Virus record (IMG/VR): IMGVR_UViG_3300035703_000098 | Span: 1-60,162 of that record | Strand: one strand, 5' to 3' | From: a virus | Taxonomy: Duplodnaviria > Caudoviricetes | DNA: 60,162 nucleotides | Part shown: positions 43,853 to 60,162 of the stretch, piece after piece | Layout: each line of letters starts with the position of its first letter | How positions within the stretch are numbered: position 1 is the first letter of the stretch | The notes under the pieces: generated by a model | The model's input: only the letters and a program-made list of their open reading frames with translations | What the model was told of the DNA's origin: nothing | Database searches by the model: none | Program-made: the position numbers and the translations under genes

Positions 43853-45682
43853 TTATGGATTCGCGTTAGAGAAGAAGTTCTGCGGGTTGGTCTTGTGAGT
43901 CGCCACCGATGCGTCCTCCCACGGGTTGAACGCGACCGGAAGCTGATCAGTGTCCTTCGGACGAGTCGTCAGCGCGTATTCGAACTCCGCGCGGACCGTG
44001 AACACTTCCTGGCCGCCGGGAGTGCGCTCCGGAGACACCGGAGTGGCCACGTTGCGCAGCAGAATCGCGCGGCCATTGCCGAACTGGTACGACGGAACCG
44101 GACGCGGAATGGATGGTTCGCGTCCGACTCGTTGACCGACGATTCGCACGATGCGCCGCCAGCCGGGCAGAGCCACGGCGCCCACAACCAGCGTTGGTGA
44201 ATCATCGGACAAGGCGAATGCCTGACCGGCGATCGGCAACGCGATCCGATGTGCGTCCTGCTGGTAGACGGACTCCGCCTGCCAATGTGTGTAGACCGCG
44301 TCGCGATGATCCTGGCCGACGTAATTCACCGGCTGCGTCGGCAGAGCTGACACGACCGCGCCGGAGAGCGCGTAATCTATGCGCGCAAACGGACTCTGCT
44401 CTTTCAATGCGTTTTCAGCACTTTCAATTCCATGCGTTGAGCCATCACAGGGCGTCTGAAGGTAGGCGTGCCATGCGGATGTCACTGGAATCGGTCCGCT
44501 GACGTAGATCGGATCGCCAGGGCGTGCGCCAACTGAAAAATTCGAGTTGTATCCGGGAACCACGGCCGCCAGATCAGCCGCAGTGATCGGCCGCCCGATC
44601 GAATTCGTCAGCGCTCCCAGCAGTGCGTTCGTCTCCATCGCGCGTTCGGCCAGGCACGAGACCTGAATCGAGTTCCCGGAGTCGCCGAAACTGTCCACGA
44701 TCGTGAATTCATGAATAACTGCCTGAGCTTGATTGCCGCCGTTATTGACGAGCTGAGACAGCTTGCTGATCTTCGCTTCGATCAGCGCCACGCCGATCCG
44801 GATCATGGCCTGTTTGTCGGCATCGCGCGGGCCTTTCAGGGTCACATCCAGCGATGACTGCACCATCCGGCTGTTACTGGTCTTTTCGACATGACGGACG
44901 TCCCAGCTTGTGGCGGGCGCTGGACAGGCGAAAGCCACTTCGCGGTCCACGATGGTGTAATCGAGGATCCGCGCGTCCTCGTTGACCGTGAACTGCATCG
45001 ACTGGCGACGGAAGCCCGGTTGCAGCCGGGGAACTACCCAGAACCGCAGCGAGTTCACGTTCACCGTGCCGTCAGCCGTTTCCATCCGGCCGTTGATCGT
45101 GCGCGTCGTGTAGTAATCCTGATCGACCACATCCACCATCGACCAGCGATTGTTGAGGATGCCGGTTGTCTGATTCGGAGCTGTTCCGGATTCGTTGCAC
45201 TCGACCAGGCAAACTTCAATCTCGAACTCCAGCCGCATCACATTGCTGCTGACAATCTGAGTGACTGCCAGAGAACGCGGATGCGGACCGTTCTTCACAT
45301 CGACATTGCTGTAGGACAGCGATGTCTTCGAGGCAACCGGATTCGCTTCCAGCATCATGGTCGTGCCGGACTTGAACTCGAACGCCTGACGCGGTTCCAT
45401 CAGTTTCGCGCGAATGATCAAGTGCTGCGTCGGCGCGTTGATCGCACTACCTGCTGGCGGTGGCAACGATGGATTCAGACCGGATGTGCGAACGCCAACT
45501 CGTGTTGTTGGCGCTGTAAAATCAAGGACGTCTGCGGATGACAGATAGCCCGTTACGCCGATCGTGTAACGATAGTAAAGCAGGTCGGTATCCGACCGAT
45601 CGTAGACCGCTTCCTGACGGAAAGTCCGGGTCAGGCAGTTCCGCAGAGTGACACCGTTGTAAGTGAGAGTTGTTTCGCTCAC
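43853..45682 (-). CDS. Putative distal tail protein
   Basis: Follows the tape-measure position gene; GTGA overlap start at 45682; beta-rich. Confidence 0.6.
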   Translation of the reverse strand: MSETTLTYNGVTLRNCLTRTFRQEAVYDRSDTDLLYYRYTIGVTGYLSSADVLDFTAPTTRVGVRTSGLNPSLPPPAGSAINAPTQHLIIRAKLMEPRQAFEFKSGTTMMLEANPVASKTSLSYSNVDVKNGPHPRSLAVTQIVSSNVMRLEFEIEVCLVECNESGTAPNQTTGILNNRWSMVDVVDQDYYTTRTINGRMETADGTVNVNSLRFWVVPRLQPGFRRQSMQFTVNEDARILDYTIVDREVAFACPAPATSWDVRHVEKTSNSRMVQSSLDVTLKGPRDADKQAMIRIGVALIEAKISKLSQLVNNGGNQAQAVIHEFTIVDSFGDSGNSIQVSCLAERAMETNALLGALTNSIGRPITAADLAAVVPGYNSNFSVGARPGDPIYVSGPIPVTSAWHAYLQTPCDGSTHGIESAENALKEQSPFARIDYALSGAVVSALPTQPVNYVGQDHRDAVYTHWQAESVYQQDAHRIALPIAGQAFALSDDSPTLVVGAVALPGWRRIVRIVGQRVGREPSIPRPVPSYQFGNGRAILLRNVATPVSPERTPGGQEVFTVRAEFEYALTTRPKDTDQLPVAFNPWEDASVATHKTNPQNFFSNANP

Positions 45683-47961
45683 GGGCGAATCTCCCACTGC
45701 GGATTGATCGGCTGCCGGAGTCCAGCGAACGGATCATTCGGTTGGGCTTTGAACGCCGCCATGACTTCCACGGGAATGCCGCCACGATCTTCTTTGCGTG
45801 TGTTCTTCTCGATCTGATCGAGAATGGCGCCGAAGCCAAGAATCTCACGGGCCGTGCTGTACATGCCGCCGAATGCTTCCGAGATTTTCGCGCCGAAGAC
45901 TGCTCCCAGGTTTGAAATCGTCTTTGAATCTCTGTCATACGGCTGCCACGCTTTTTGCGATGCAGTCGTCGCATTGACAAGCCACGCTGTTGTTCCCTGC
46001 GTCTCATTGGCCGTCTGGCGGTCCATCTGCATTCGATTCAAATCCTGTCGCGCGAAAGCCGCCGCGATGTTGCCGTTGTATTTCGCGAGATACCGATTGC
46101 CCTCGTTGATCGTCTCCGAGAATTCCTTGAACTTTCCGACCAGACCAATGGTCGCGGCACCGAGGACCCCAAGGCCCGCAGCCAGACCAGCCACTACCAG
46201 TCCGACCGGCCCTCCTGCCATCAAGCCAGCCGCCACAGTGCCACCGACCACCAGTCCGGCTACTCCACCTGCCATTCGACCTGTAGCCTGTGCTGATGGA
46301 GTGTTTCCGCCAATACTGCTCATTCCGCTCGAAACACCAGCACTGACAGTGCGTCCTGTCACATATCCGGCTGCCAGTCCGCCAAGGAGTCGTCCGCCCA
46401 TACCGCCCGGGCGCAGTCCGAACTTCCGCATGGCCTGCCGACCGGCCTGACGGCGTCCGATCGTGGCCAGCAGATTGCGGGCGATGCCGCGTTTGCCGAA
46501 CACCAGATTCCGGAAGACCGCGCGCGGGTTGAACGCTGGCTGCTTCCGCGAATCACGACGACGTCGGCGCTGGCCCGATCCAGATGGCTGAGCGGACTGG
46601 TCGGACTCCGAGCGGCTATCACCGTCCGAAACCGGCGGAATGGGAGAATCACCAATCGGCGCGGCAGCTTGCGATGGATCGATCTGTCCTGGATTCCCAG
46701 ACTGGCCGGATCGTGACTCATTCCTGCTGTCGCCGCTGTCGTCGTCACCGCCGTCCGGAGGCTCATCTCCACCGCCTGCTGGTGGACGCGGCGGGCCCGG
46801 CGGAACTGGAGGAATCTGGCCGCCGCTGCCTGCTGACGATGGCTGAGCCGCCGCCGATGGTGACGATGTCGCAGACTGCTGTTGCTTCTGCGGATCCTGC
46901 TGATGGCGTTGAAGCAGCGAGTTCAAGACTTTGACCGTGTCGGTCTTGTTCCCCCCAGCGTCATAAATCGCCGCGATGTCGTCACGGTCGCGAATCAGTC
47001 CACGAGAGGCCGCCAGATCAACAGCCTGCTCAAAGACAGGAGGCTTGCCACCGGCGATGTTTGCGGACTTCCCGGCCTGCACTCGATTCCAGACCGAGTC
47101 GATCAGGCCGTCCCGCATGCCTTTGGCCATCCCGGCGCCCATGCTCGCAAGGCCGGTTTTGTCGCCGTTTGTGCCGTCCGTCCTGCTTTCGACCAGCGGA
47201 GCGGCAACCAGAGTTTTCGCCACTGGCTCTGCCGGCTCTTCCGTCGCCTGCAGCGAGGCCATCGCCTGAGGGTAATACCGGCCAAGCAACTGTTGAGCTT
47301 CGTCCGGACTGAGCGCCACTGCATTTGCCGGACTCGCCTTGCTCTGACGAGTTGCTGACCGGGAAGACGGGACACGGCCGGGCTTGCCCACCGAAGGCGA
47401 CAGTGGAGGCAAAGCACCGGCCGGCCCGGTTGATTGTGATGCGGATGATTGCGGATGCGGAACCGAGGACTGCGATTCAACCGGATTGACCGCCGCCTGC
47501 AACGTCGCCGCGGACATGATCAGATCCGGCCGCAAACCCATCAGCGACTGAATCAGTTCGGCGCGTTGTGCCGGGTCCGGAAACAGTTCCGGGCTGATGA
47601 TCGCTGCGACTTCCCGCATCTCCTTTGGCACTGTCGATGCGGCTGCGGACGATGGATTCAGTGCCTGCTGAATGGCCCGCGCCGCATCCGGTACGCCGGC
47701 CTGCTGCATGATCTGCGCGGAAATCTCTGGCCCGATCGAATCCAGCAGAGACCTCACGACGCGGGACATGCGAGGCCGCGCGGCCGGCTGCGTCGGACCA
47801 GATCGATCGACGGGCATCGCTCCCGTCTCGCCGGAAGTCTCAGCGGCCAGAAACTGCGACAGCCAGTCCGCCAGGCGAGTCAACGGCAACGCGGACAGAA
47901 TTGACCGCCACGGCCATGCCGCGCCGCCGATTCCTCCCTGCATTGGGGTTCCAGTCGCCAT
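45679..47961 (-). CDS. Tape-measure-position protein
   Basis: Directly after the frameshifted chaperone; Gly/Ala-rich hydrophobic helices near the C-terminus. Confidence 0.55.
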   Translation of the reverse strand: MATGTPMQGGIGGAAWPWRSILSALPLTRLADWLSQFLAAETSGETGAMPVDRSGPTQPAARPRMSRVVRSLLDSIGPEISAQIMQQAGVPDAARAIQQALNPSSAAASTVPKEMREVAAIISPELFPDPAQRAELIQSLMGLRPDLIMSAATLQAAVNPVESQSSVPHPQSSASQSTGPAGALPPLSPSVGKPGRVPSSRSATRQSKASPANAVALSPDEAQQLLGRYYPQAMASLQATEEPAEPVAKTLVAAPLVESRTDGTNGDKTGLASMGAGMAKGMRDGLIDSVWNRVQAGKSANIAGGKPPVFEQAVDLAASRGLIRDRDDIAAIYDAGGNKTDTVKVLNSLLQRHQQDPQKQQQSATSSPSAAAQPSSAGSGGQIPPVPPGPPRPPAGGGDEPPDGGDDDSGDSRNESRSGQSGNPGQIDPSQAAAPIGDSPIPPVSDGDSRSESDQSAQPSGSGQRRRRRDSRKQPAFNPRAVFRNLVFGKRGIARNLLATIGRRQAGRQAMRKFGLRPGGMGGRLLGGLAAGYVTGRTVSAGVSSGMSSIGGNTPSAQATGRMAGGVAGLVVGGTVAAGLMAGGPVGLVVAGLAAGLGVLGAATIGLVGKFKEFSETINEGNRYLAKYNGNIAAAFARQDLNRMQMDRQTANETQGTTAWLVNATTASQKAWQPYDRDSKTISNLGAVFGAKISEAFGGMYSTAREILGFGAILDQIEKNTRKEDRGGIPVEVMAAFKAQPNDPFAGLRQPINPQWEIRP

Positions 47962-47975
47962 TGTTCTCACTCACC

Positions 47976-48273
47976 TCACTGGCCGAGCAGTTCACGCCTC
48001 TGTCGCTGCAATTCGAGATTCGCCTGATGCCGCTCCCACTGGTCCTGCGCCTGCCATTCACCGTCAGCCACCGCGTCAAACATCTCCCGCGGCACTTCTC
48101 CGGACAGTGCCGTATGAATCGCAGTCATGACGGGCACGGCTCCGCGATACTGCTGGCGTTCGAGGTTGAGCCAGAGTCCGAATCGGAATTCGGGATCGGA
48201 TCGCTCGTGCTGGGGGATGGCTCCTGCGCCGTATTGAGCAGCGAGGTCAGCAGCAGGTTGCCACTTTTTTTTT
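47976..48273 (-). CDS. Tail assembly chaperone, -1 frameshift extension (gpGT-like)
   Basis: The -1 frame is open from the A9 run: KKKWQPAAD...RELLGQ. Confidence 0.75.
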
Positions 48274-48592
48274 GCTCGCGTATGTATGCCACAAATGCAA
48301 TCAGCAGTCCGACGCACTCTGTCTCTGTGAGGCTACCTGTGACCGGCAGCCGGAACGCCGATCGAACTGCCGCCACGGTCCGCTGGAGTGCCGCGTCTCG
48401 CTCCTGATGCGTGAGAGCGCTGCTGATCCAGATCGGGTCTTTCGACCAGTCAAACGGCGGAGAATTCATTAACGTGCGAATGACTTCGATCGGATCAATG
48501 GTCCGAATTTCGCGACCATTCCAGTACCGATAAACAGCACGTTCCCGCTCTGCACGTTTGCGTCTGATCCTGTTGAACAGCCAGCCGAGCAT
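48125..48592 (-). CDS. Tail assembly chaperone (gpG-like)
   Basis: Between tail tube and tape measure; slippery CAA AAA AAA AGT followed by a low-complexity Ser/Pro tail. Confidence 0.75.
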   Translation of the reverse strand: MLGWLFNRIRRKRAERERAVYRYWNGREIRTIDPIEVIRTLMNSPPFDWSKDPIWISSALTHQERDAALQRTVAAVRSAFRLPVTGSLTETECVGLLIAFVAYIREQKKSGNLLLTSLLNTAQEPSPSTSDPIPNSDSDSGSTSNASSIAEPCPS

Positions 48593-48696
48593 GTCTGATC
48601 GCCTTTCAGACAGTTCGAGAAAGGAAAACAGCCGGAGTTGCCGAAGAACCGACAACCCCGGCCGCCGAAGGAAGGGCTGCGCCCATCACACACTCG

Positions 48697-49188
48697 TCAT
48701 GTGGTCGTCGCGTTGTAGAGCGTCATCGTTCCGGACACGTCCACCGCATGTGCTTCCCACGTCATCGGAATGCGAGTCGCTCTGGTACCGGCCGGGATCT
48801 TCATCCCTCGCCACGGAGCCGCGAGCAGATAGTTGCGCGGGACCGAAGTGGAATGCAGCAGCAGGCGGAACCCGTTGTCGCTCAGGAACGTGCCGGGATC
48901 CGCGACTGTGCCTGCCGTTTGCCCGTAAACGTGAGCCAAAACCTTGGCCAGAACTGCGGCATCGAACTTCACCAGCGTGAACTGAATCAGATGGATTGCT
49001 CCGAAGTATTGCACTTCGTCTGGAGGGCCGGCCTGGCCGCCGCGCAGGTCACACTTGATGTCTTCGCGGAAGACCTGATCGTCGATCATGACGCCGTCTT
49101 CGGAGTATCCAAGCAGTTCCAGCGCGTTCGTTGCCCCGGTATCAACCTTGATGGCGACCGGGCCTTTCATTTCGTAAGCGACAGCCAT
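48697..49188 (-). CDS. Major tail (tube) protein
   Basis: LGYSEDGV motif; size; upstream of the chaperone. Confidence 0.75.
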   Translation of the reverse strand: MAVAYEMKGPVAIKVDTGATNALELLGYSEDGVMIDDQVFREDIKCDLRGGQAGPPDEVQYFGAIHLIQFTLVKFDAAVLAKVLAHVYGQTAGTVADPGTFLSDNGFRLLLHSTSVPRNYLLAAPWRGMKIPAGTRATRIPMTWEAHAVDVSGTMTLYNATTT

Positions 49189-49194
49189 GATTCA

Positions 49195-49698
49195 TCACCC
49201 TCTTCGGGGAAAAGTCTGATGCGGGTAGTAATGGTATGTTCGGCTTCTCATCAGGCCGGCTGCTTCCACGCTGGACGGCGTTGCCACCTCACGCGATGGA
49301 ACGCTGGCTTCCAGAGACTCCGTGATGCCGAAGATGTTTTCGCCGCGCCGCAGCCGATCGAGCATGTCATTCGGCCACTGCATCCGTTTCTCAAACTGAT
49401 CTGGATCGAGTCCGCCGCGCCGCTCTTCCAGAAACGTGAACGCAATCTGGCAAACGAGCCGCTTGAGCAGTCCCTGTGGATTACCAGTGAGACCACTCAG
49501 GTCAGCTGCCGAGTACCGCTGACCGGCCAGCAACGCGGCTTCCACCTGACCGGATGCGTCTTCCAGCACCATCAGGAGAATCTCGTTGTCGTCCAGGTCA
49601 GCAGACTCGATCGCTTCATCGGTGTCGCTGGGCAGCTCAAGGAGCGTCCGCACGTCATACCGCTGAGCGAGGTCCGCCGGCGTCGCGTAAGCAGCCAT
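49195..49698 (-). CDS. Head-tail adaptor, Mu gp36 / DUF1320-like
   Basis: MAAYATPADL...DASGQVEAAL..RY...LVCQIA...LDRLRRG; start ATG 49698. Confidence 0.8.
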   Translation of the reverse strand: MAAYATPADLAQRYDVRTLLELPSDTDEAIESADLDDNEILLMVLEDASGQVEAALLAGQRYSAADLSGLTGNPQGLLKRLVCQIAFTFLEERRGGLDPDQFEKRMQWPNDMLDRLRRGENIFGITESLEASVPSREVATPSSVEAAGLMRSRTYHYYPHQTFPRRG

Positions 49699-49709
49699 GC
49701 GGACTCCGA

Positions 49710-50765
49710 TCAGATCACATCGGTGAACAGGAACGACGAAGCCGGAGCAGTGAGCTTGGCCACGCGATGGTCGATCACACGGACTTTCGTGACTCGATTT
49801 TCGGTGTCGTTCTTCACTTCCGTCTGCATGTCGTACCCATCGCTGCCCTGGTAGACGAACAGCGAGCAGGACGAGAACTCCGGCGAACCGTAGAGGCCTT
49901 CCAGCGCCCCGGGACGCGCCAGCAGCATGGCCTTTGCGCCGGTAAGCACATAGGACCGACTGACAGACGACGCGCCCTTTTTGCTGGTCACCATCGTGGT
50001 GTTCTCGACAACCAGCTTGACGCCGTAGAGGTATGGCGGAAGCCCCCATTCGGAGTTGTCCCACAGCGTGCCTTCGATCTGGCCCTTGCTGTGCTGCGAC
50101 CCCTTGAGGTACTCGACGATCTCCTGACATTCAGAGATTTCACTGGCACAGTCGGGACTGATCACCAGCACGAGGTCTTTCTTGCTGACAGCGCTCAGCG
50201 TTGCCTTCTCGATGACCTTCGCCGCATAGTTCAACGACCGCTTGATGTCCTGTCGGGCACTGGTCGAAGCCGCCCACGTCCCGGAGTTACCGGAGATATC
50301 AGCCGCCGCCGAATAGTGACCGGACAGGTAATTGCCAGTCGTGGTCAACATGTCGATGACATGCCGCGTCCGGCTGGTCATGCCCTGCTGGGCCTTGATG
50401 CGGGCGTGCTGATTGACGATGTCCCACGATGCCTGTTCGGCACCGAGATTGCCCAGCCGCGCGCTCCACGCTTTGCGGTCGCAAGTGAACTGTTTGAACT
50501 GGAACGACTCCGTTCCGCCGTTGTCGTCGGGAGCATCTGCGCCATCCGGCCAGGCGTGTTCAACGTCGTTGGCCGACAGAACTCGACCGGCCTCTTCGAC
50601 GGTCATTTCCAGCCAGTAACCGGCCATCTTCGGCGCCGGAATCAGCTTCGTGTACTGATTCAACGCGAATTTGCTGGGGTTGCGGCTGAAATCCACAGTA
50701 AGGCCGCCGCTGGCCTTATGGTCCAGAACGAAGGTGTTATTACCACCCGGAAGAGTCGCAACCAC
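49710..50765 (-). CDS. Major capsid protein
   Basis: ~351 aa from GTG 50765 with GGAG RBS; order protease-cement-MCP-adaptor; LVISP and LYGVKLVV patterns of the HK97 fold. Confidence 0.85.
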   Translation of the reverse strand: MVATLPGGNNTFVLDHKASGGLTVDFSRNPSKFALNQYTKLIPAPKMAGYWLEMTVEEAGRVLSANDVEHAWPDGADAPDDNGGTESFQFKQFTCDRKAWSARLGNLGAEQASWDIVNQHARIKAQQGMTSRTRHVIDMLTTTGNYLSGHYSAAADISGNSGTWAASTSARQDIKRSLNYAAKVIEKATLSAVSKKDLVLVISPDCASEISECQEIVEYLKGSQHSKGQIEGTLWDNSEWGLPPYLYGVKLVVENTTMVTSKKGASSVSRSYVLTGAKAMLLARPGALEGLYGSPEFSSCSLFVYQGSDGYDMQTEVKNDTENRVTKVRVIDHRVAKLTAPASSFLFTDVI

Positions 50766-50784
50766 GGCTTTTTCTCCAGTCCAC

Positions 50785-50865
50785 AAAAAAGAAAAACCCG
50801 CGACCGAGTGCATTCACACTCAGGCGCGGGTTCTGTTGGTCAGTCACCCGAAAGAATCAGATTGT
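50785..50865 (-). promoter_or_regulatory. Conserved RNA leader + intrinsic terminator, copy B (before the MCP)
   Basis: ACAATCTGATT-N6-GGTGACTGACCAACAG, then hairpin AACCCGCG...CGCGGGTT, then TTTCTTTTTT. Confidence 0.8.
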
Positions 50866-50878
50866 GAGAGTCAGTCGA

Positions 50879-51298
50879 TTACGCGGCCGGAACGGTACGA
50901 GTAGACGGACGCAGCTCCATGCGGGCGTATTCGCCTTCCGACGCCGTTTCGAGCGCCTTGCCACCAAGGTTCCGCACCGTGCCGGCAGTCGTAGCGGCAA
51001 TGACCGCCTGGCCGTCTGCGTCCGACTCAACGTCCGACCCGTAGGTCACGCCGCCGGAACCAACGCGGATCAGCACGATCTCGCCCGGTGTGTGATGCAC
51101 GTTGAGTGCTTCACCGCTTTGTGCGGCCTGAGGCGGATCGGCCGTTTCGCTCGGAATCGGAACCACGCGGCTGAATTCCTGCGAGACACCGTAGATCGAC
51201 TCGTTCGCATCGCATTCGGCGACGGAGAAGTTTCCACTCAATTTGACGAAGCGACTCACTCGAATCGTCCCGGTCGCAACATGGGCACCAGTCGGCAT
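50879..51298 (-). CDS. Capsid cement / decoration protein (DUF2190-like)
   Basis: 139 aa; RFVKL, GDV-like GSDVESDADGQA and GKALETA motifs; immediately upstream of the MCP. Confidence 0.75.
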   Translation of the reverse strand: MPTGAHVATGTIRVSRFVKLSGNFSVAECDANESIYGVSQEFSRVVPIPSETADPPQAAQSGEALNVHHTPGEIVLIRVGSGGVTYGSDVESDADGQAVIAATTAGTVRNLGGKALETASEGEYARMELRPSTRTVPAA

Positions 51299-51310
51299 GT
51301 TCCGTTCCTC

Positions 51311-51392
51311 AAAAAGAAAGAGCCTGTGCTGAATGCTGTTGTTTGCACTCAGCACAGGCTCTGTTGGTCAGTCACCTGTGAAATCAGATTGT
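51311..51392 (-). promoter_or_regulatory. Conserved RNA leader + intrinsic terminator, copy A (before the cement gene)
   Basis: ACAATCTGATT-N5-GGTGACTGACCAACA, then 17-bp hairpin GAGCCTGTGCTGAGTGC/GCATTCAGCACAGGCTC, then TTTCTTTTT. Confidence 0.8.
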
Positions 51393-51407
51393 CTGTAAGC
51401 GAGCCGC

Positions 51408-53075
51408 TCAGATCCGGCCGGCAATCGCATCCTCAACCAGCTTGTTGTAATCCGCCGGTCGGCCCGCCTGCACTTCGGCGCGGTACTTCTCCATCGCCCT
51501 CTTCGCGTATCGAGCCATCTTCGGGTTGCCCGGCTGCGACAAATCCCCGCCGGAACTTTCCGTCTTCTTCGGCCGCTCAACCGGCAAATCGCCAACCTCA
51601 TCAGCCAGCGGCACTCGCACTGAATTTCGCTCCAGAGACTTCGCATACCGTTCAAACTGAACATCGTCGAAGTCTTCACTGAGTTGAGCACATTCGTCGA
51701 TGTCGATCTGGTGGCCCTTCTTACGAAGTGCAGCCAGCGTCGCACGGCGGTAATGCTCCTTTTTCTCGCCGCCCACTTTCGCGAGCTGCTGCTTCAGCCG
51801 GGCATTCTCAGCCTGCAGTGAAGTGATGCGATCCATCAGGACGTCAGGACTGGCGCCGGATTCAGGGCTGACCGCTTCGAGACTTGAGCCAGATGTATCG
51901 CCAGCCGATTCCGTTTCATCGCCGTCATCATCGCCGTCATCAACATCCGACGCCGCTTCAGCCGGGGCCGGAGCTGCTCCTGCCTCGCCTTCACCGCCAT
52001 CCTCTTCATCATCTTCATCGTCGAAGTCCGCCATGACCTGAGAGTCATCGTCGGAGACTTCATCACCGTCCGGCTCGTCATGATCGTCGTCAGTGACTGC
52101 TTCGGTGTCCGCGACATCATCCGGCCCTTTGTCGCCGGCCATCATCGACTTCACGAACTGCACCCACGGCGTTTCTTCCAGAATGTCCGCCGCATACTGA
52201 GCGATCTTGCGAGCATCTTCGTCAGAAAGAGCCATCGAATCCCGTCCTTCTGTTTCCGGCTCATCGGCCGAATACTTTTCGTCTGGAACAAACGTGTTCG
52301 CGCCGCCAGGCATCGCTGCAGCTGCGTACCGCTCAACCTTGATTCCCGATCGCTGCCCCTGTACTCGCGTCGCAGACAACCGCGTGATTCCACGGGCTGC
52401 ATACCTCTCGACAGCGACTTCGTGCTGTGATCCAGACAGTGAATACCGAGCCATACCCAGATCGCGACGGGGACGTTCGGCCCCCAGCGCGGCGATCGGA
52501 TCCATGACCCGGTCTTCCAGTCGCGGAGTCAGCCAGACTTCCGGCGAGCGAGTGCGGTGAGTGTCCAGGATCGGCGCCGCGGATTTGCGGTGCCACTCCA
52601 CCGAAAACACTGCCCAGCGGGGAGCGCCCTCGTTACCAACCTGGCCGAGGTAGAACGGCCCGGAGTAGCCCAGCACTTCAGGCTGCTGATCAGCCGGATC
52701 GTCAGTCGTGTGCCCGTCCGTCAGCGCCGCGTAATTGCCGGTTTTCCGAATGCGATCATTCATGTTCCGAACGATCGCAGACAGCCCCTTGTGTTCGTAG
52801 TGCGTTGTCGAACCGTCGCCATTGCGGGCCACATGCTCGTCAAACACTGCGACCGGAGGCACCATCCGGTACTTCTCTTTCGGCCATTGCCTTCGCCCGG
52901 CCCGCAACAGCGAATCGTTTCCGGATTCAAACCAGACCCGGAACATCTCCGCGTTGCGAGCATCAGTATCGGGAATCTCGCGACTCATCAGAGTGTGGAA
53001 ACGAGTGGCAAACGCAATCTGATCCTCTCCCGGTTTCGGGAGCAGACCGACTCGCGTTGTGATACCTGCTGCCAT
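51408..53075 (-). CDS. Prohead protease-scaffold fusion (Mu gpI/Z-like)
   Basis: DGH, LGY, RSPEV and ALGAERP motifs, followed by an acidic linker and coiled coil; upstream of cement and MCP. Confidence 0.75.
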   Translation of the reverse strand: MAAGITTRVGLLPKPGEDQIAFATRFHTLMSREIPDTDARNAEMFRVWFESGNDSLLRAGRRQWPKEKYRMVPPVAVFDEHVARNGDGSTTHYEHKGLSAIVRNMNDRIRKTGNYAALTDGHTTDDPADQQPEVLGYSGPFYLGQVGNEGAPRWAVFSVEWHRKSAAPILDTHRTRSPEVWLTPRLEDRVMDPIAALGAERPRRDLGMARYSLSGSQHEVAVERYAARGITRLSATRVQGQRSGIKVERYAAAAMPGGANTFVPDEKYSADEPETEGRDSMALSDEDARKIAQYAADILEETPWVQFVKSMMAGDKGPDDVADTEAVTDDDHDEPDGDEVSDDDSQVMADFDDEDDEEDGGEGEAGAAPAPAEAASDVDDGDDDGDETESAGDTSGSSLEAVSPESGASPDVLMDRITSLQAENARLKQQLAKVGGEKKEHYRRATLAALRKKGHQIDIDECAQLSEDFDDVQFERYAKSLERNSVRVPLADEVGDLPVERPKKTESSGGDLSQPGNPKMARYAKRAMEKYRAEVQAGRPADYNKLVEDAIAGRI

Positions 53076-53096
53076 GTCGTTTCACTCGATTAAAAA

Positions 53097-53168
53097 TGGC
53101 GGAGGACAGAATTGAACTGTCTGTCTCCAGCTTATGAGGCTGGCGAGATACCGGTTCTCCACTCCGCG
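53097..53168 (-). tRNA. tRNA-Met(CAT), initiator-like but atypical
   Basis: 72-nt cloverleaf C-GCGGAG/CTCCGC-C-A; D stem GAGA/TCTC; anticodon arm CCAGC-CTCATAA-GCTGG; T-arm GACAG-TTCAATT-CTGTC; CCA not encoded. Confidence 0.88.
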
Positions 53169-53174
53169 TCAGTA

Positions 53175-53861
53175 TCAGTTGTCACCCAGGTTGATCCAGA
53201 TCAGCCGAATCGTCCCGTTCACAGTGATCGTGTCGTTGGCCGAAGACCCGGCATCCGGACACGCGATGTTCAGGTAAGCGTCCGCAGCCGTCGAAGTGCC
53301 ATCCAGCAGGGCAACCGCTGTCGATTCGCCCTTTACGGCTCCTGCGCCGCTCGTCAGCGTGCCGGCCGTGCTGGGAACGATGTTCGCTTCCGTGCTGGTC
53401 AGAGTCGCATTGTCGGTCCCCACAGCCGCGGAGCCAACAGACGCAACGATTGAGGCCGTGTCTGAGATTCCGCCAGCACCGGCTTCGATGGTGAGGTCGG
53501 TCACCGCGCCCAGAACCATGATGTTGCCGGCCGGGAAGTCGTAGACCTTCTGGCTGCCGTGGCTGCCGTTGGTCGTCGCGTCCGTCATCGTGACTTCAAG
53601 GTCTTCGATCGTCAGCACAGTCGTCTGCACACGGGCGCCGCGTTCGTCAGCAGCCACACCGGTCCCCGCTGCCGCGCCGGAGCTGGTCGCTTCCGGTTCC
53701 AGACCGTCCGGCTGAACCCATTCGCCGCTGGCATTGAAGACCAACAGTTTGCCGATCGTAGTGTCGAAGTAGACCGCGCCCACGTTCGCATTGGTCGGGC
53801 GCTGCGCCGTCGTTCCGCAACGATCAGCACCATTCTCGGACCACGGGATCACCTGAATCAT
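53175..53861 (-). CDS. Putative head decoration / virion protein
   Basis: GTTAQRP...GAVYFDTTIGK head-fibre-type motif plus a beta-sandwich (YDFPAGNI..LGA). Confidence 0.7.
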   Translation of the reverse strand: MIQVIPWSENGADRCGTTAQRPTNANVGAVYFDTTIGKLLVFNASGEWVQPDGLEPEATSSGAAAGTGVAADERGARVQTTVLTIEDLEVTMTDATTNGSHGSQKVYDFPAGNIMVLGAVTDLTIEAGAGGISDTASIVASVGSAAVGTDNATLTSTEANIVPSTAGTLTSGAGAVKGESTAVALLDGTSTAADAYLNIACPDAGSSANDTITVNGTIRLIWINLGDN

Positions 53862-53934
53862 ATCACACCATTTCACGCATAACTTGTCAGACCATCAACA
53901 GGCGGAACGCCAGAGTCACGATCCGACCACGAAC

Positions 53935-53953
53935 CGACCACAATCAGCAAGAG
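53935..53953 (-). promoter_or_regulatory. Conserved 19-nt motif, copy 2 (putative late promoter/activator site)
   Basis: 18/19 identical to 5914-5932; intergenic, upstream of the head operon. Confidence 0.5.
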
Positions 53954-53960
53954 ATCATTT

Positions 53961-54161
53961 TCAGAGTTTTTCTGACCGTCTGGTGGATGCGACAATTCGG
54001 ACGGGCACACCGTTCTCAACGAAGACCTGCAGGCCGACTTCGCCAAACCATCCAGACTCGCCGACAGCGACAACTTCGCGCTCCATGGCGCGCAGGATGG
54101 CCGCCATGCGACTGCGACGAACAGCCTCCGGCTCGCCTTCAGCCGGCCTGCGATCAATCAC
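53961..54161 (-). CDS. Small YezD/DUF2292-like protein
   Basis: FGEVGLQVFVENGVPVRI...RRSEKL pattern; start either GTG 54161 or ATG 54107. Confidence 0.5.
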   Translation of the reverse strand: MIDRRPAEGEPEAVRRSRMAAILRAMEREVVAVGESGWFGEVGLQVFVENGVPVRIVASTRRSEKL

Positions 54162-54169
54162 TCTGCCGC

Positions 54170-57100
54170 TCAAAATGGAACCCCCGCCAACTGTTCTGCC
54201 AGCGTGTCGATCGTGGATTCGCGAGACCATGTCTGCGGCCCGTCGAAACCATTCTCATCACCACTGAAATTGTCGAAGTCATCGAATCCGTCACTGTCGC
54301 CGAAATCGTCATCAGCGCTGGCGGACGGCTGCTTTTGCACTCGCTTTGCCGCCTTGCGATCACGCATCAATCGCTCTGCGGCACTGTCTGCCACTTCCTG
54401 CGACCACTCTTTGACCGCTGGCTTTGCGCCCTCGCGAATGAAGTCCCACACTTTCTGCGGGTTCTCAGTATCATCCGGATCGAATCCCAGATGCTGGAAC
54501 GCATAGGCGAATGTGCGAGCGCCCTCATCGAATCCGGGAACCGTCGAATGGTCCCTGTAGGCGTTTTCGATGAACCCCTGCCGGCCGGAGTTCAGGCCAG
54601 TCATCTTCCTGGCTTCCGCGCGAGCCTGTTCAAACAGCAAATGATCCTGAGACATCCGCTGATGCTCTTCCGTCATCGCTCGAAGGACATCACGAGTCGA
54701 AACGCCGGTCGCCCTGGCTGCACTCCGGGCCGCCGCATGCTTCTGCTGAGCTGCGGGAGACTCCAGCTTCTTCAGGTCGGCAGTCTTCATGTCTTTCCCG
54801 GTCTTCCCGGCCGCTTCCGCATGGGCCTGCCGCGCAGCGCGACGATCGCGTGACAGGTCATCTTCGCCGATCAGATCGTTGACATGCTCACCCTTCAGAC
54901 CGGGACAGCCTTTGGTGATCTTGCCGTCACCGTTCACGAACACCGACGAACCGCCGACCTTCTGCCAGCCCGGAGTCCCGTCACCCGGCTGGCGTGCCCT
55001 CTGCGACGTTGCCACTCTCTTCTTGCCCCCGCGAGTCTTTCCAGCTTTCGGATGGCTTTCAGCAGGCGCCGACGGCTTCAGTTCGTAACGCTCTACATGC
55101 ACGGCATCGAAGGCACGACGAAGCATGCCGTAAGGCTCGCGACTGACATCCGAATCCGGCATGGATGGCTTTTCAATTGTGACAAGCCGTGTATTCACAC
55201 CGGTTTTCCGAAACGCCTCATTCGACGCAAACGAACCTTCCGGCAAGTCTTCGGAGACTCCCCCCTGGCCCGTTAACCAGGCGTCGAATTCTTCGCGCTT
55301 TCGGCCACCGCCTGCACTCATGATGGCCACAACGCGGCCACCCGGAGCAAGCAGGGAAAAGGCGTGTTTGACATGTTCGATATCCTGCGCATTCTCAAAC
55401 GGCGGATTCATCACGATGCGGTCATAGCCGCCTTCGGAGTGCTTCAGGAAATCATCGCCAACCAACTTGTGGCCCTTTGCATCCAGCACGCCTCGCAGAT
55501 CACTGTGCGGCTCAATCGCATGTGGTTCAATCGCATCACCGTGCCGCTCTTTGAGCACATCCAGCAGATCACCTTTGCCTGCGGATGGTTCCAGAACTTT
55601 CATGCCCGGACGAATATCAGCCTCGTCAACCAGGCGATTCGCCAATGTCTTCGGAGTGGGAAAGAACCCGTCGATCTTTCTGCCGGCCAGTGCTCGTTCC
55701 GCCGCCTTGATCGGGTCTGTCTGCTGTTTGCCCACCTTGAGAGACTGGTATTCCCGAAGCGCCGCCCGCAATTCGGGCGGGTTCGTGATATCCATTGACC
55801 GCAGTCGCTTCACCTGTTCCAGCCGCCAGTTGAGATCATCTGCAATTCGCTGCCTGTTGCGGTCCGGTGATTTCTTCAGCCGAGACGCCACTGTTTCCAG
55901 CCTGGCAATCTCGTCTGGCTCGCTGAATGTGACCATTTCGCTGTCGGAAGTCGGCGCATCCACCAGATCAAGTTTGTGCCCGCGACTTCCGGCCGCAACG
56001 ATCGCTTCATCCGGAGACTTTGCAAACGTCTTGCCTCCGTCTGCCGTGTAGGCGTGCTCCAGTCCATGCTGCTGCAGTTCGCCTTTCAGTTTCGGATCCG
56101 AACTGCGATGCACTCGGACGGCCTTCCCATCCGGCACGCCGAACAATCGCGTCTTCTTTGACGTAATCAGTTCGCCGCCACTGAATGCCAGCCCATTCCC
56201 CTTCCGCTCAAATCCTTCTTCGGCCTTCTTCTTCAGGCTGGCCGCGATGTTCTTCAGGCCCGGCACGTCGCTGAGTTCGGCTGCATATTTGAGGATGTCA
56301 CTTTTGTGCAGACGCGGATACGGGAACTCCGCATGATCGACGTGCTCCCTTGCCGCCGGTCCATCCAGGATGCTTTCCTCTTCACGCCAGGTCATTCGAT
56401 CCTTGCCGTCTCCGCGCTCCTTCCGCATGTGCCGAACTGTCGCGTACTTCGCCTGATTCAACAGGCTGTCGAGCGTATCGAGATGCGTTCCGTGGCGGAC
56501 TCCAGCCAGATGTTGCAGTTCTCCGCGTTCAAGGTGATCCGCCAGAGTCTGCATCGTCTTTGCCTTCGCGACGCTGGCGTGTGCCCGGCCTTCGATCGAC
56601 GCCGCCATGTCCGCACGACGCGACGTATTCGTCTGACGCTCGCGACCGAGTTCCGCTGTCGCCGCTTCATGGATTGACGCGGCCTTTTCTCGAAGTGATT
56701 CGGATGCGGTCTGCGCCCGGAGTTCTGCTTTTGCGGCCATCTGATCCGATGCGTCCGCACTACCGCCTTCCATCACGCTGACGAACTGACGGCGAGCATC
56801 CTCAGTCGGAAAATGAAACCCGCCAGGCGTGCCGCCATAAGCCTTGTAGTACCATCCGCCCAATCGCCTGGCTGCCGCATTCATCGAATTGTATTCGTCT
56901 GTGCCAACCCGGTTCTTCGGACTCGCGGTGAAGATGTCGTGACCGCGCTTCGAGTGAAAATTCTTCGTCAGATCAAAGCCGCCAACTGAACCGACCGCTG
57001 CCGTCGATGCGGTAACCGTCGCCTTCTTACCGCGTTCAGATTCGCGTCTGGCTGTCGCCCGCAAGTCATCGTAAGTCGCCCGCTGCTCACTGGTCAGTTT

Positions 57101-60100
57101 GTCCTCGCCGCCCTTGATGCGCGCCGCTCGCTCAAAGTCTTCGATCGTCTTCGGGTTCTCCACTCCGGCCTTCATCTCCGCGATTTTTGCCTGCCGCTCT
57201 TCGGTAACGGCTTTACGCTGTGCTGCGTGCTTCTGGATGTGGTCGTCGGTCAGTTCATCAAGCCTCTTCGCGATCGCGTTAGCCTTTGCGGCCTTCATGT
57301 CGCCACTCATCTGATAACTGATGCCACGGTCGGTCACATTCAGCGACTCGCCACTCATCCAGTTCTGCATCAGACTATTGATTAGATCGGCCTTCTTTTC
57401 GCGACCGACCCAGCCGCGTGCGCCGCGCTTCTTTAGGTCTGCGACGCTCATTTTCTCCAGTTCACCGCGCACAGCTGACTGGAACTCCGGCGACTGCATT
57501 TCCTTGTGCCATTGCCGGACTTCATTTGCTGTTGTTTCTCCACGATCAAGGCGATCGTGCATTTCCGCGAGCCTGGCGATGCTGTACGGCGGCAGGTCTG
57601 TCCTTTCCGCTGCTGGTAATGGCATGTCGGCCTTCATCGATGTCGTTTGCTGTCGCTGTGAGAACTCTTCGAGCATCCGTTTCGCCAATGCGGGATTACT
57701 GGCAATGATGTCCTTCATCGCCGCTTTCGCGTCTTTGAGCGTTCTGCCGTTTTTCTGAACTGTACTAAGTGCAAGGGCATCTCCATGCTTCTCGAATAGC
57801 TCGCGAGCCTCGTCACGAATCTGAGATGACTCAAGTCGTTCTTGTCTTGCTTCTTCCACCTGCGACTTCTTCAGGTCATCAATCTGTCTGTCAATGTCAC
57901 CCCGTTTGCTGAGTGGCACATTGACTTGAGCCGTATCGACACCCTTTGAAGCCGCCTTCGTCGCTTTCCTTGCACGAACATACGCATCATCAGACGGTCG
58001 CGAACCCGCCTTCGACAACTCCCGCTGTCTCGCCACTAGATCCGGGTATTCCTGCAGTACATCATCGGGCACGTAGATGCCGCGCGCCAGATAACCCTCG
58101 ACGTGATTCTTGTGCTGTCCTAACTGCTCCTCCACGGCTCTGACCTGATAATCTCTCAGCGTAACGCCTTGCCGCATCAAGTCGGCCTTGCGCTCCTGTG
58201 TTAGATAGCCTTGCAGATGCCGAGGCCTGTCTGCTTTGGCCCAATCGCTGGCTGCCTGCTGCGCGGCATCGTAGGCCAGCCGCCGCTTGTCGAGCCGATG
58301 GAGCTTGTCCGCCTCTTCGGCTGTCATACTCTCCCACGCCTCTTTCGACCTGTCGTCGCCGACATCTACCAACTCCCGTTGCCCATCCAGCGGCTTGTTC
58401 GCGGCAGCTCGTTCCTCGTCCGCGTCTGAGATCTTCTCCAGCTCCGACTTCGGCACGGCAGACTCAGTGGACTTCGTGGACGACTTCGGCGCCGACACAT
58501 TGAACAGCTTGCCCTGTGAGTCCGGATTGAACAGGTTCTGCTGCTGGCCGGGGACGGTTGGCTGAGATGTTGCTCGCTCAGGTGTTTCTGGGCGCGCAGT
58601 CGGTAGTACCAATCGCGGATCAATCTCCTTCGTCGGCTCAGCTTGCTTTGACTCCGGCTTCCAATTGGGCATGTCCGCTGTCGCCACTAACACATTCTTA
58701 CCCCGCAACACGGCGCGAACTTCCGCTTGTGTGCCGCCTCCGTATGTGGCAATCGACAACTTTTCTCCGGGCTTCATCCTGGTCTTGAGCTCGTCCAATG
58801 TTGTGACGCCAGCAAACCTGCCTTTCCCGCCGCGAATTTCGCCAAGCTGTCGCTCGTTATTCTGCTTTAGCTTTACTGCACTGGAAGACGAGCGATTTCG
58901 TTCGGCCAGCTCGTTGGCGGCATTGGGCATCGCGTCTGCGTACTCGCGAAGCACTTCATCCGGAATTGAATCCGGATCGTAAATCAATGCGGCCTGCACC
59001 CATTCCTGATGATGGCCGGAATCATCTTGGCCGATCAGGAACTTACCGCCTGCAGGATCGAGTGCGTTGGCATACTCATCGGAAGTCAGCGTCCATGGAT
59101 CACGCCCGGTTGCTTTGCGGACGGCATGACCGCCTGATCTTGCGCGAGATGACAGCGCCGACTCGGACACCTTGCGACCACTTGACGACTTCGCTGCCAC
59201 ATCCGAACTGGACACCTCGCCGCTTCCATCTTTCGCCGGCTGTTTCTTACCTACTTCATGCGGCTTCTTGCCGTGCAGGGCCGGAACGGTCGGGTGGCTG
59301 GCAATCCGGCCTTCGCCGTCCAGCAGAACCGGAGTGCCGCCCGCGTGCTCCTTGCCGTCCTCTTCGTGACCGCCGATCGTCACCCAGCGGAATTCGCCCT
59401 GACCCTTCGCGGACTGGCGGGCGTAGCGCTCGCAGGCAACCCGCATCGCATACGACAAAGAATACCTGTTGACATCCCCATCAGAATGACGACCATCAAT
59501 ATCGGTCCCTTCAGAAGACGGGCGAGCCGTCCTGGGCGTTCTGTGAGGGGAGTCGGCACTCGCCGATTCATCCACTCTCGACCCTTTTTTCTTCTGAAGG
59601 GACTTTAATGCCAACTCTCGTCTGCCAGTCCTGACAGCCTGAATTGTGACGACATGACCGTTGAATCTCTTGCTGAACAATAACTGCAAACTCCCATGTG
59701 CATCCCGCTTCCGCAGCAGTTCCACATGGTCAGGCGAAGCCATGATTTCGGGTATCTTCATGAAGTCTTCGCGGCTGATCGGCAATTGCGATCGACTTGC
59801 TTCAATAGCCGGATCCGAATGACGATTAACGGCATGCCGCACATCATCAGCATCAATGATCAGGCTGTAACCTTCGACATCAACGCCAGTAGCAACTCTG
59901 ATCTTGTCAGCACCGATTTGGCTGACATCGGCATAATAAACCGCATCCCGGCCAGCAGCTTTTGACGACAAAGCGCGGTCAACCAATTGGCTAATTTCAG
60001 CAAGACCGCCTGTTCGCGTTCCTTGCGGTAAACGTGATCGCTGCCTGTTTGTTTGCGGCGAAACGGTCCACCGCCCTTGTTCGTCTCGCTTCTGATCTGG

Positions 60101-60162
60101 ATCAAACGCATACCGCTCGACCGCCGGTTTCTTCGTGGCTCCGTCCTGATACAACCACTTCA
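54170..60162 (-). CDS. Giant polyvalent protein (about 2169 aa with 128..644): InPase + PBECR RNase + N6-adenine DNA methyltransferase + unknown modules
   Basis: PBECR-like DDVRHAVNRH...QLPISREDF..IPEI...PD...LFSK (~59590-59950); MTase FFPTP, LEPSAGKG and MNPPF (~55175-55675). Confidence 0.88.
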   Translation of the reverse strand, partial: KWLYQDGATKKPAVERYAFDPDQKRDEQGRWTVSPQTNRQRSRLPQGTRTGGLAEISQLVDRALSSKAAGRDAVYYADVSQIGADKIRVATGVDVEGYSLIIDADDVRHAVNRHSDPAIEASRSQLPISREDFMKIPEIMASPDHVELLRKRDAHGSLQLLFSKRFNGHVVTIQAVRTGRRELALKSLQKKKGSRVDESASADSPHRTPRTARPSSEGTDIDGRHSDGDVNRYSLSYAMRVACERYARQSAKGQGEFRWVTIGGHEEDGKEHAGGTPVLLDGEGRIASHPTVPALHGKKPHEVGKKQPAKDGSGEVSSSDVAAKSSSGRKVSESALSSRARSGGHAVRKATGRDPWTLTSDEYANALDPAGGKFLIGQDDSGHHQEWVQAALIYDPDSIPDEVLREYADAMPNAANELAERNRSSSSAVKLKQNNERQLGEIRGGKGRFAGVTTLDELKTRMKPGEKLSIATYGGGTQAEVRAVLRGKNVLVATADMPNWKPESKQAEPTKEIDPRLVLPTARPETPERATSQPTVPGQQQNLFNPDSQGKLFNVSAPKSSTKSTESAVPKSELEKISDADEERAAANKPLDGQRELVDVGDDRSKEAWESMTAEEADKLHRLDKRRLAYDAAQQAASDWAKADRPRHLQGYLTQERKADLMRQGVTLRDYQVRAVEEQLGQHKNHVEGYLARGIYVPDDVLQEYPDLVARQRELSKAGSRPSDDAYVRARKATKAASKGVDTAQVNVPLSKRGDIDRQIDDLKKSQVEEARQERLESSQIRDEARELFEKHGDALALSTVQKNGRTLKDAKAAMKDIIASNPALAKRMLEEFSQRQQTTSMKADMPLPAAERTDLPPYSIARLAEMHDRLDRGETTANEVRQWHKEMQSPEFQSAVRGELEKMSVADLKKRGARGWVGREKKADLINSLMQNWMSGESLNVTDRGISYQMSGDMKAAKANAIAKRLDELTDDHIQKHAAQRKAVTEERQAKIAEMKAGVENPKTIEDFERAARIKGGEDKLTSEQRATYDDLRATARRESERGKKATVTASTAAVGSVGGFDLTKNFHSKRGHDIFTASPKNRVGTDEYNSMNAAARRLGGWYYKAYGGTPGGFHFPTEDARRQFVSVMEGGSADASDQMAAKAELRAQTASESLREKAASIHEAATAELGRERQTNTSRRADMAASIEGRAHASVAKAKTMQTLADHLERGELQHLAGVRHGTHLDTLDSLLNQAKYATVRHMRKERGDGKDRMTWREEESILDGPAAREHVDHAEFPYPRLHKSDILKYAAELSDVPGLKNIAASLKKKAEEGFERKGNGLAFSGGELITSKKTRLFGVPDGKAVRVHRSSDPKLKGELQQHGLEHAYTADGGKTFAKSPDEAIVAAGSRGHKLDLVDAPTSDSEMVTFSEPDEIARLETVASRLKKSPDRNRQRIADDLNWRLEQVKRLRSMDITNPPELRAALREYQSLKVGKQQTDPIKAAERALAGRKIDGFFPTPKTLANRLVDEADIRPGMKVLEPSAGKGDLLDVLKERHGDAIEPHAIEPHSDLRGVLDAKGHKLVGDDFLKHSEGGYDRIVMNPPFENAQDIEHVKHAFSLLAPGGRVVAIMSAGGGRKREEFDAWLTGQGGVSEDLPEGSFASNEAFRKTGVNTRLVTIEKPSMPDSDVSREPYGMLRRAFDAVHVERYELKPSAPAESHPKAGKTRGGKKRVATSQRARQPGDGTPGWQKVGGSSVFVNGDGKITKGCPGLKGEHVNDLIGEDDLSRDRRAARQAHAEAAGKTGKDMKTADLKKLESPAAQQKHAAARSAARATGVSTRDVLRAMTEEHQRMSQDHLLFEQARAEARKMTGLNSGRQGFIENAYRDHSTVPGFDEGARTFAYAFQHLGFDPDDTENPQKVWDFIREGAKPAVKEWSQEVADSAAERLMRDRKAAKRVQKQPSASADDDFGDSDGFDDFDNFSGDENGFDGPQTWSRESTIDTLAEQLAGVPF
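60036..60162. repeat. Terminal direct repeat, copy 2
   Basis: Identical to bases 1-127. Confidence 0.95.

Follow-up and report, generated by a model that had tools for sequence, protein, structure and literature searches.

The IMG/VR virus record IMGVR_UViG_3300035703_000098, whose 60,162 bp make up the window analysed here, is a complete viral record with direct terminal repeats. Its minus (sense) strand carries two intergenic elements of about 80 bases each, A (51392-51311) and B (50865-50785), in the gene order 555-aa gene, element A, 139-aa gene, element B, 351-aa gene. Both elements hold the same two-part block, ACAATCTGATT-N5/6-GGTGACTGACCAACAGA, and in both the block runs into a strong hairpin with a U-tract that lies 20-30 nt upstream of a start codon, that of a cement-like gene (139 aa) for A and that of the major capsid protein (MCP) gene (351 aa) for B. 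The repeat is real and non-random, and the shared segments mark A and B as real paralogues. We read them, at a probability of roughly 0.4, as paralogous, locally acting, factor-dependent attenuators in the head operon; judged from the arrangement of blocks, hairpins and genes, they probably gate capsid production. To our knowledge essentially nothing is known of gene regulation in phages of Planctomycetes.

Duplicated blocks joined to terminator-type hairpins

A prediction made earlier from the bare sequence (the original prediction) held that two intergenic copies share ACAATCTGATT-N5/6-GGTGACTGACCAACAGA exactly, and on the minus strand they do; the region 50785-51392 spans exactly from the end of the U-tract of B to the start of block 1 of A. 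The parts of the two elements are as follows.

51382-51392, minus strand: element A, block 1, ACAATCTGATT, identical in B; includes segment 1, AUCUG (51389-51385)
51360-51376, minus strand: element A, block 2, GGTGACTGACCAACAGA, identical in B; its final AGA is the first 3 nt of the terminator stem
51319-51362, minus strand: element A, terminator-type hairpin of 18 bp, of which one is a G·U pair, and a loop of 8 nt
51311-51318, minus strand: element A, U-tract TTCTTTTT, then the Shine-Dalgarno (SD) sequence GAGGA (51310-51306) and ATG (51298)
50855-50865, minus strand: element B, block 1, ACAATCTGATT, beginning 13 nt past the cement stop codon TAA
50832-50848, minus strand: element B, block 2, GGTGACTGACCAACAGA, identical in A
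50793-50834, minus strand: element B, terminator-type hairpin of 10+8 bp, with a 1x1 internal loop, a 4-nt loop and three G·U pairs
50785-50796, minus strand: element B, U-tract TTTTTCTTTTTT, then SD GGAG (50777-50774) and GTG (50765)

The spacer between the blocks is TCACA (5 nt) in A and CTTTCG (6 nt) in B. Within the window the 17-mer GGTGACTGACCAACAGA has only these two matches at up to 3 mismatches, where a shuffle control gives 0.19 expected matches and reached two in 1 of 100 shuffles; the 11-mer ACAATCTGATT has two exact matches and one match with 1 mismatch, and a search of the whole record with up to 2 mismatches allowed again gave two matches. Elsewhere in the genome, fragments of the blocks occur as chance-level 8-10-mers only, one of which, at 28128, lies inside a coding region. 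An alignment of the copies that extends from block 1 through the stem shows 35/35 identical positions in the two blocks and the inner 5' arm of the hairpin (CTGAGTG), and 18 in the remaining 41 columns (~44%), a contrast with a Fisher p of 1.5e-8 on a partition that was picked post hoc. The elements therefore alternate between 11 identical, 5/6 diverged, 17 identical, 7/8 diverged and 7 identical positions. A protein-coding reading of the blocks was rejected because the two copies sit in different frames.

Folding gives a hairpin of -35.4 kcal/mol in A (z -8.7) and of -28.9 kcal/mol in B (z -5.9), each equalled by 0/200 shuffles. Both elements show the features of an intrinsic terminator, namely a G+C-rich stem-loop on the gene strand with a U-tract within 0-2 nt of the stem (in B the U-tract adjoins or overlaps the stem end), and as far as folding can tell each finishes, on the sense strand, with a canonical terminator-type hairpin and its U-tract. 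The outer stems had been said to differ in sequence and still to pair around a shared inner CTGAGTG, with U-tracts just before the ribosome-binding sites, and this description is accurate: 3 of the 7 outer pairs differ between A and B, each compensated on both sides, the inner 5' arm is common to both hairpins, and the inner 3' arm carries two transitions that preserve pairing via G·U. Since the terminators stand directly ahead of the cement-like and capsid genes, RNA polymerase must pass them to reach either gene.

A third hairpin, outside the repeat, serves as a comparison site.

48627-48666, tail to 48615, minus strand: hairpin C, 18 bp, then a U-rich UUUUCCUUUCUC

Hairpin C (-31.1 kcal/mol, z -5.5), which has no conserved block, separates a 163-aa gene from the gene that follows it, two genes past the capsid gene. 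Sense-strand G·U pairs number 1 in A, 3 in B and 5 in C, and the sense RNA is stabler than the antisense by 3.3, 4.3 and 14.4 kcal/mol, respectively; this strand bias argues for RNA hairpins in the sense transcript rather than a DNA palindrome. Strong hairpins with a U-tract number three in 60 kb, all of them in the head region. Terminator-like sites are not enriched overall (observed/expected 10/14.4, 16/13.6, 19/17.5 and 6/7.6), and those with 18 pairs are A and C only, the next largest having 10 pairs, in a scan that detects B only in part owing to its internal loop.

Near-identical DNA was found in sequencing runs of four studies (X2-X5), with a single X2 contig covering 48000-54000 with 92 differences and 2 gaps. 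Among the differences listed, none falls within element B in the pieces of X3, X4 and X5 that span it, and the only one in hairpin C, in X2 and X3, is in the loop (48648). At 50765-50800 on the minus strand, the 3' arm and U-tract of B (CGGGUUUUUCU) are complementary to AGAAAAAGCCG, which takes in the last part of the SD and the region of the start codon, and an effect of the B U-tract on translation is conceivable.

An alternative leader fold and the attenuator reading

RNAalifold and RNAfold reveal a smaller hairpin, 2:3, that is common to both copies and has the form C(A/G)GGU-GA-CUG-ACCAA-CAG-A-(G/A)CC(U/C)G.

51353-51380, minus strand: element A, alternative hairpin 2:3, putative antiterminator, CACAGGU-GA-CUG-ACCAA-CAG-A-GCCUGUG, 7+3 bp, -13.2 kcal/mol
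50827-50850, minus strand: element B, alternative hairpin 2:3, CGGGU-GA-CUG-ACCAA-CAG-A-ACCCG, 5+3 bp, -9.4 kcal/mol

In both copies the 3' strand of this hairpin is the first 8 nt of the 5' arm of the terminator, and such an overlap with the terminator base is suggestive of an attenuator-like layout. The extra pairs of 2:3 come from the diverged spacer (CACA:UGUG in A, CG:CG in B), and a weak 1:2 pairing joins AUCUG(A) to (U)C(A/G)GGU (-3.4 kcal/mol in A, -4.9 kcal/mol in B). When prefixes of growing length are folded, 1:2 appears first, 2:3 next and the terminator plus 1:2 last, an arrangement like that of classical attenuators. Relative to dinucleotide shuffles the 2:3 hairpin of A has a z of -3.1, with 1/200 as good. 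The fold put forward in the original prediction, TCTG(A)TT/AACAGA around GGT-GACTG-ACC, reaches -2.5 kcal/mol in A and -2.1 kcal/mol in B and is not the minimum-energy structure. Its functional proposal, a nut/put-like antitermination site or a protein-responsive attenuator, fared differently in its two halves: the predicted overlap of 2:3 with the terminator base is consistent with a protein-responsive attenuator, and a nut/put-like site is unsupported.

If A and B are such attenuators, host RNA polymerase would by default be stopped by their terminators ahead of the ribosome-binding sites of the cement-like and capsid genes. The 34-nt conserved region before the terminator would fold as the small 2:3 hairpin, and a sequence-specific factor holding that hairpin would block the terminator base beside the U-tract and allow read-through into the capsid gene; with the factor absent, the RNA would adopt the weak 1:2 pairing together with the far stabler terminator form. 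In this way the two most heavily used capsid genes of a temperate phage would stay off until a late signal. We go further only as a doubtful conjecture, in which a lineage-specific RNA-binding antiterminator, of phage or host, would gate cement and capsid through a new family of switches like the ribonucleic antiterminator (RAT) elements, and the repeated duplications, independent of one another and with unrelated motifs, in these two leaders of sister lineages would reflect a general need for co-regulation of cement and capsid protein.

Several points weigh against attenuators of this kind. Two sequences only stand behind the model, and in B the 2:3 hairpin is unremarkable (z -1.8, 12/200 dinucleotide shuffles as good). 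Shuffling of the upstream part alone matches the pairing with the arm in 19/300 cases for A and 84/300 for B, and the one compensatory pair and one wobble change in the 2:3 helix are no better than shuffles (231/500, n=2 sequences). Because the terminators are stabler than 2:3 by 20 kcal/mol or more, the switch needs a factor, and among 47 open reading frames (ORFs) of the phage scanned with Pfam there was no Q, N, NusG/KOW, CAT_RBD or ANTAR domain. With two attenuators in a row ahead of it, the MCP gene would receive a smaller, not a larger, share of transcripts. Lastly, hairpin C and the hairpins of relatives lack the block, so that plain leaky terminators may suffice. The parts that we consider worth follow-up are the invariant block and the repeated homogenisation of leaders across the clade.

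The layout is like that of the RAT/terminator systems of BglG, SacY and LicT, and loosely that of ANTAR, PyrR and TRAP, in that a conserved leader sequence of ~30 nt can be folded into an imperfect hairpin that would overlap the 5' base of a much stronger terminator just ahead of a gene, several copies of the same sequence occur per genome, and termination would be the default. Unlike those systems, A and B have no RAT consensus, and the Rfam match to bglG-cis-reg (RF03530) is far below threshold, with 18.5 bits against a gathering cut-off of 80 (E 1.7), in the terminator part only. Likewise, no CAT/PRD or ANTAR protein was recognised among the 47 phage ORFs scanned with Pfam; the setting is a phage capsid operon rather than a sugar operon, and the 2:3 hairpin rests on two sequences. 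With the four-segment trp and his attenuators A and B share, by predicted folding, mutually exclusive 1:2, 2:3 and 3:4 pairings in transcription order, and with the rph-pyrE attenuator an intercistronic position shortly past an upstream stop codon. Unlike the trp/his type they have no leader peptide ORF: by reading, there is no SD with a start codon within the 13-15 nt before block 1, and, counted from the upstream stop codons, the two blocks fall in different reading frames. From these stops it is 13-15 nt to block 1 and ~45 nt to the terminator, distances that, given the size of a ribosome footprint, should be too long for a terminating ribosome to cover segment 1 or the terminator directly.

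As judged by comparison with Rfam, the element is without a described family. In Rfam 15 the matches in 50600-51600 are at chance level, the best having 18.6 bits against a threshold of 70, and in the window as a whole the matches at or above threshold are two, both to tRNA. A covariance model of block plus 2:3 hairpin, a step that the original prediction had proposed, could be built; over the window and 22 related loci (176,609 bases) it found only the two window copies. It was also run over 151 genomes of one Planctomycetaceae family and found no convincing copy there, its single match (E 0.047 per genome) being rejected as apparently coding sequence. Five stretches in IMG/VR contain the exact 17-mer, all in coding-like DNA with neither block 1 nor the hairpin, and were set aside as chance. 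A literature search, with supplements outside its scope, gave nothing relevant, either on antitermination at a terminator or stem-loop ahead of a capsid gene or on RAT elements in phages.

An alternative to which we assign an appreciable, if minor, chance is that the hairpins are constitutive leaky terminators, or protect or process 3' ends, and tune the amount of message per head gene, with the block as the place where an RNase, an RNA chaperone or a stability factor would act. Hairpin C, which has no block, matches A and B in strength, and 6 other representatives among the 13 lineages compared below have a hairpin and T-tract before the MCP gene, again with the block absent. Partial, time-dependent read-through of internal terminators balances expression in the operons of phage T7 and, as mapped by ONT-cappable-seq, of phage LUZ7, for which read-through is reported at >60% of terminators (PMC9163698), and this counts for leaky terminators here. 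Those operons are like the present one in having hairpins between co-directional phage genes; unlike it, they are not reported to have an invariant upstream block duplicated with the terminator, and here the sites come before, not after, the capsid gene. The tRNA-Met gene in the operon implies that the transcript is processed anyway, and stems of 18 bp are long for plain terminators. Leaky terminators alone leave unexplained, however, why the blocks are identical at 28/28 positions beside ~44% elsewhere and why block and hairpin were copied jointly, and to cut transcription before the most abundant virion protein requires a compensating feature. That the block is instead a DNA site is decidedly unlikely, whether as a late promoter or activator with an immediate terminator (PR'-tR'-like, with Q-like read-through), a repressor roadblock of the mycobacteriophage 'stoperator' kind or a PeSL-like promoter/terminator cassette on either side of the cement gene. 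Two invariant boxes around a spacer of variable sequence, whose two versions are 1 nt apart in length, do resemble a typical promoter or protein-DNA site, the inner stem has changed in its 3' arm and not in its 5' arm, and one relative (L039) has a different duplicated 18-mer ~45 nt before both starts with no terminator after it. The repeats also flank one gene in the fashion of PeSLs, which in T4-type phages are conserved intergenic promoter/terminator cassettes of ~100 bp with a stem-loop, ending in an SD and start codon and repeated on the flanks of a gene (PMC2839356, PMC4122927). As those two papers characterise them, PeSLs carry a strong promoter of sigma-70-like type, whose -35/-10 boxes enclose the stem-loop or are covered by it, and they occur in many copies in hyperplastic regions beside ORFans, whereas A and B have no promoter-like site and are two copies flanking a conserved core head gene. 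A sigma-70-like promoter scan of 44000-60162 on both strands found 0 sites, the best hexamer pairs reaching 6/12 by eye; a transcript begun in or after block 2 would be the terminator itself; an immunity repressor site would need further copies near the integrase or early region, and there are none there; and the G·U bias of the hairpins indicates RNA. Nor was a sigma factor, RNA polymerase, Q-like gene or known antiterminator domain recognised in the scanned ORFs (47 with Pfam, 27 with PHROGs), many of which match no family in either scan.

Three further alternatives take the block to be RNA of another kind or a relic. In Hfq-type small RNAs (sRNAs) from 3' untranslated regions a seed is followed by a terminator hairpin and a U-tail, and A and B match this layout, with identical 'seeds' on different stems, as might sibling sRNAs that come off the messages of the 555-aa and cement genes at their 3' ends and act on host or phage targets. 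A target search within the phage found a best non-self duplex of -29.7 kcal/mol, which lies inside the range of 10 shuffled seeds (-27.4 to -32.2), and we consider sibling sRNAs very unlikely. There is also only a very slim chance of processive antitermination, in which the leader RNA would modify RNA polymerase to ignore distant terminators. Like lambda N/nut, HK022 put and Q, the present system has late or delayed phage genes behind intrinsic terminators that need read-through, here within a long late operon; HK022 has two similar RNA sites per genome, putL and putR; and by eye there is a loose boxA-like resemblance, CGCU/CUCU..ACAA, upstream of block 1. The nut, put and Q signals act once, near the promoter and at long range, whereas A and B would each act against their own terminator. 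What speaks against processive antitermination is that both copies directly adjoin terminators of their own and that hairpin C, farther downstream, has no block; a single upstream copy would, moreover, make the second needless. By reading there is no exact boxA, and we found no two-stem put fold, no Rfam match, no recognisable N, Q or other antiterminator gene, and no boxB-type 5-bp stem with a GNRA-like pentaloop: the small hairpins are weak, and the only pentaloop hairpin in the leaders is a 3-bp CUG-ACCAA-CAG stem. The slimmest chance of all goes to a neutral relic of recent copying between the leaders, by duplication or gene conversion, in which the block would do nothing beyond what the terminator does. 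Duplication between these two spacers does recur in the clade with unrelated motifs, but the alternation of identical and diverged segments speaks against such a relic, since one conversion tract would not produce it and uniform decay would not either.

That phage late operons contain internal terminators is already known, and the surprise is therefore moderate. Should A and B be switchable attenuators, the reading that we prefer, a temperate phage would silence its top-expressed structural genes by local, not processive, antitermination, which would point to an RNA-binding regulator; should they be only leaky terminators, the region would be a case of ordinary, unusually tidy operon tuning.

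Leaders of related phages

Relatives of the capsid protein at 42-50% identity were collected from IMG/VR (23 + 2 loci), Joint Genome Institute metagenomes (5) and genomes (3; two Planctomycetaceae metagenome-assembled genomes, MAGs). The capsid gene was present in 1/401 genomes of a sample of the phylum, namely the MAG on which the sample was centred, and capsid relatives occur as prophage-like loci in 6/401 genomes of a sample of one Planctomycetaceae family, which suits the Planctomycete host that had been guessed. The INPHARED isolate phages yielded no related capsid gene. Closer capsid proteins exist, at 88%, 70% and 62-66% identity; scans of IMG/VR for these closer relatives gave no locus with P0006 and two distant loci with P0004, a metagenome scan returned only relatives at 42-50% identity, and genome scans only those at up to 50%. 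In P0002, the MCP with 88% identity, the called N-terminus runs through the ATG in the hairpin loop (MHSVAGVFFLRTGDKAVV, compared with MHSVAGFSFLWTGEKAVV here), and the 3' arm of B, its U-rich tract and the SD are therefore implied to be kept in that phage.

The relatives retain the order of large gene, cement-like gene and capsid gene. The conserved block is in none of the fetched loci, and approximate matching to it (up to 4 mismatches) placed none in a leader. A hairpin with a T-tract (-4 kcal/mol or lower) lies in the cement-to-capsid spacer of 7/13 lineage representatives (this phage, L009, L022, L027, L038, L045 and L048), with strong examples in L045 (-37.8 kcal/mol) and L048 (-13.1 kcal/mol), so that the clade repeatedly shows a terminator-like hairpin ahead of the capsid gene. 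Ahead of the cement gene, by comparison, this phage alone among the 13 has a hairpin and T-tract, and element A looks like a lineage-specific copy.

Elsewhere in the clade the two leaders share other motifs. Two copies of a GTGAAAGGATTCAC motif, which places the SD in the loop of a small hairpin, occur in 26/37 loci, and L007 has one exact copy. As the palindrome (T)GTGAAAGGATTCAC(A) it ends the cement and capsid leaders in L005-L027 and L033-L036 (for example at 2538-2551 and 2984-2997 of L009), where a 5-6-bp hairpin carries the SD AGGA in its loop ~8 nt ahead of the ATG; the motif may be a shared translational operator. In L039 (63% G+C) it is an unrelated 18-mer, CGGATGCCAGCCTAGACA, that stands in both leaders (2309-2428 and 2836-2976), ~45 nt before both starts, and further, weaker similarity extends down to the SD; its second spacer has a 13-bp hairpin before CGGATGCCAGCCTAGACA, with the T-tract on the opposite strand. 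L038 and L041 share no motif between their two leaders. That cement and capsid leaders have been made alike several times with different motifs suggests a design rule for matched amounts of the capsid proteins.

Spacers of other kinds are also structured in these relatives. Four prophage-like loci of Planctomycetaceae (L045-L048, from genomes G437, G487, G553 and G738) have cement-to-capsid spacers of 125-225 nt; that of L046 folds at -104 kcal/mol, and L045 and L048 have a strong hairpin and T-tract directly before the capsid SD. Past the capsid gene, relatives of lower G+C content have a structured spacer of 170-230 nt (-56 to -85 kcal/mol; L009 4041-4216, L023 4041-4273, L027 4041-4213, L022 2271-2440), which this phage does not have. 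These spacers include a 13-14-bp hairpin, followed in L009 by TTTTCAT.

Head genes and the phage record

The genes around the two elements, and others that characterise the phage, are these.

51408-53075, minus strand: 555-aa head-module gene (from the ORF list), stop TGA at 51410-51408, 15 nt ahead of element A
50879-51298, minus strand: cement/decoration-like gene, 139 aa (by Pfam, PHROG and a homologue), ATG at 51298, stop TAA at 50881-50879
49710-50765, minus strand: MCP gene, 351 aa (predicted structure with HK97 fold), GTG at 50765
53097-53168, minus strand: tRNA-Met (CAT) gene in the head operon, between a 233-aa structural gene and the 555-aa gene
31689-32774, plus strand: integrase
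6826-8322: large terminase
4214-5851: Mu-type portal

Most genes of the phage are on the minus strand, and since it encodes an integrase it is likely temperate. The 555-aa product has no Pfam family and one marginal PHROG match; homologues of 510-575 aa occupy the equivalent position in relatives. The 139-aa protein matches PF23982, PF09956 and PF22758, every one below its curated cut-off, and phrog_673 at 7.8e-11, and PF22758 is present in 1 of 12 homologues (P0123); the product is cement-like on these matches, in line with the identity first proposed. The 351-aa protein, whose GTG start was set by alignment to homologues, has no sequence match in Pfam, PHROG or the PDB. Its AlphaFold2 model (pLDDT 67, pTM 0.71) retrieves 3bjq with Foldseek at 1.2e-10, followed by many phage capsids and encapsulin shell proteins. 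By this predicted structure the product is an HK97-fold MCP, as had been supposed. The capsid gene has no terminator 3' of it, and a Mu gp36-like gene begins 11 nt past its stop codon.

Apart from tRNA-Met there is a second tRNA-like match of 101 nt at 23639-23739 on the minus strand (Rfam, 36.5 bits), with no ARAGORN call. At the ends of the record, a giant ORF of >1,990 aa (54170-60160, minus strand) contains PBECR3 nuclease and methyltransferase domains, and an ORF with an InPase (pyrophosphatase) domain (3-644, minus strand) extends past the start of the window; the two may be one polyvalent protein gene spanning the terminal repeat.

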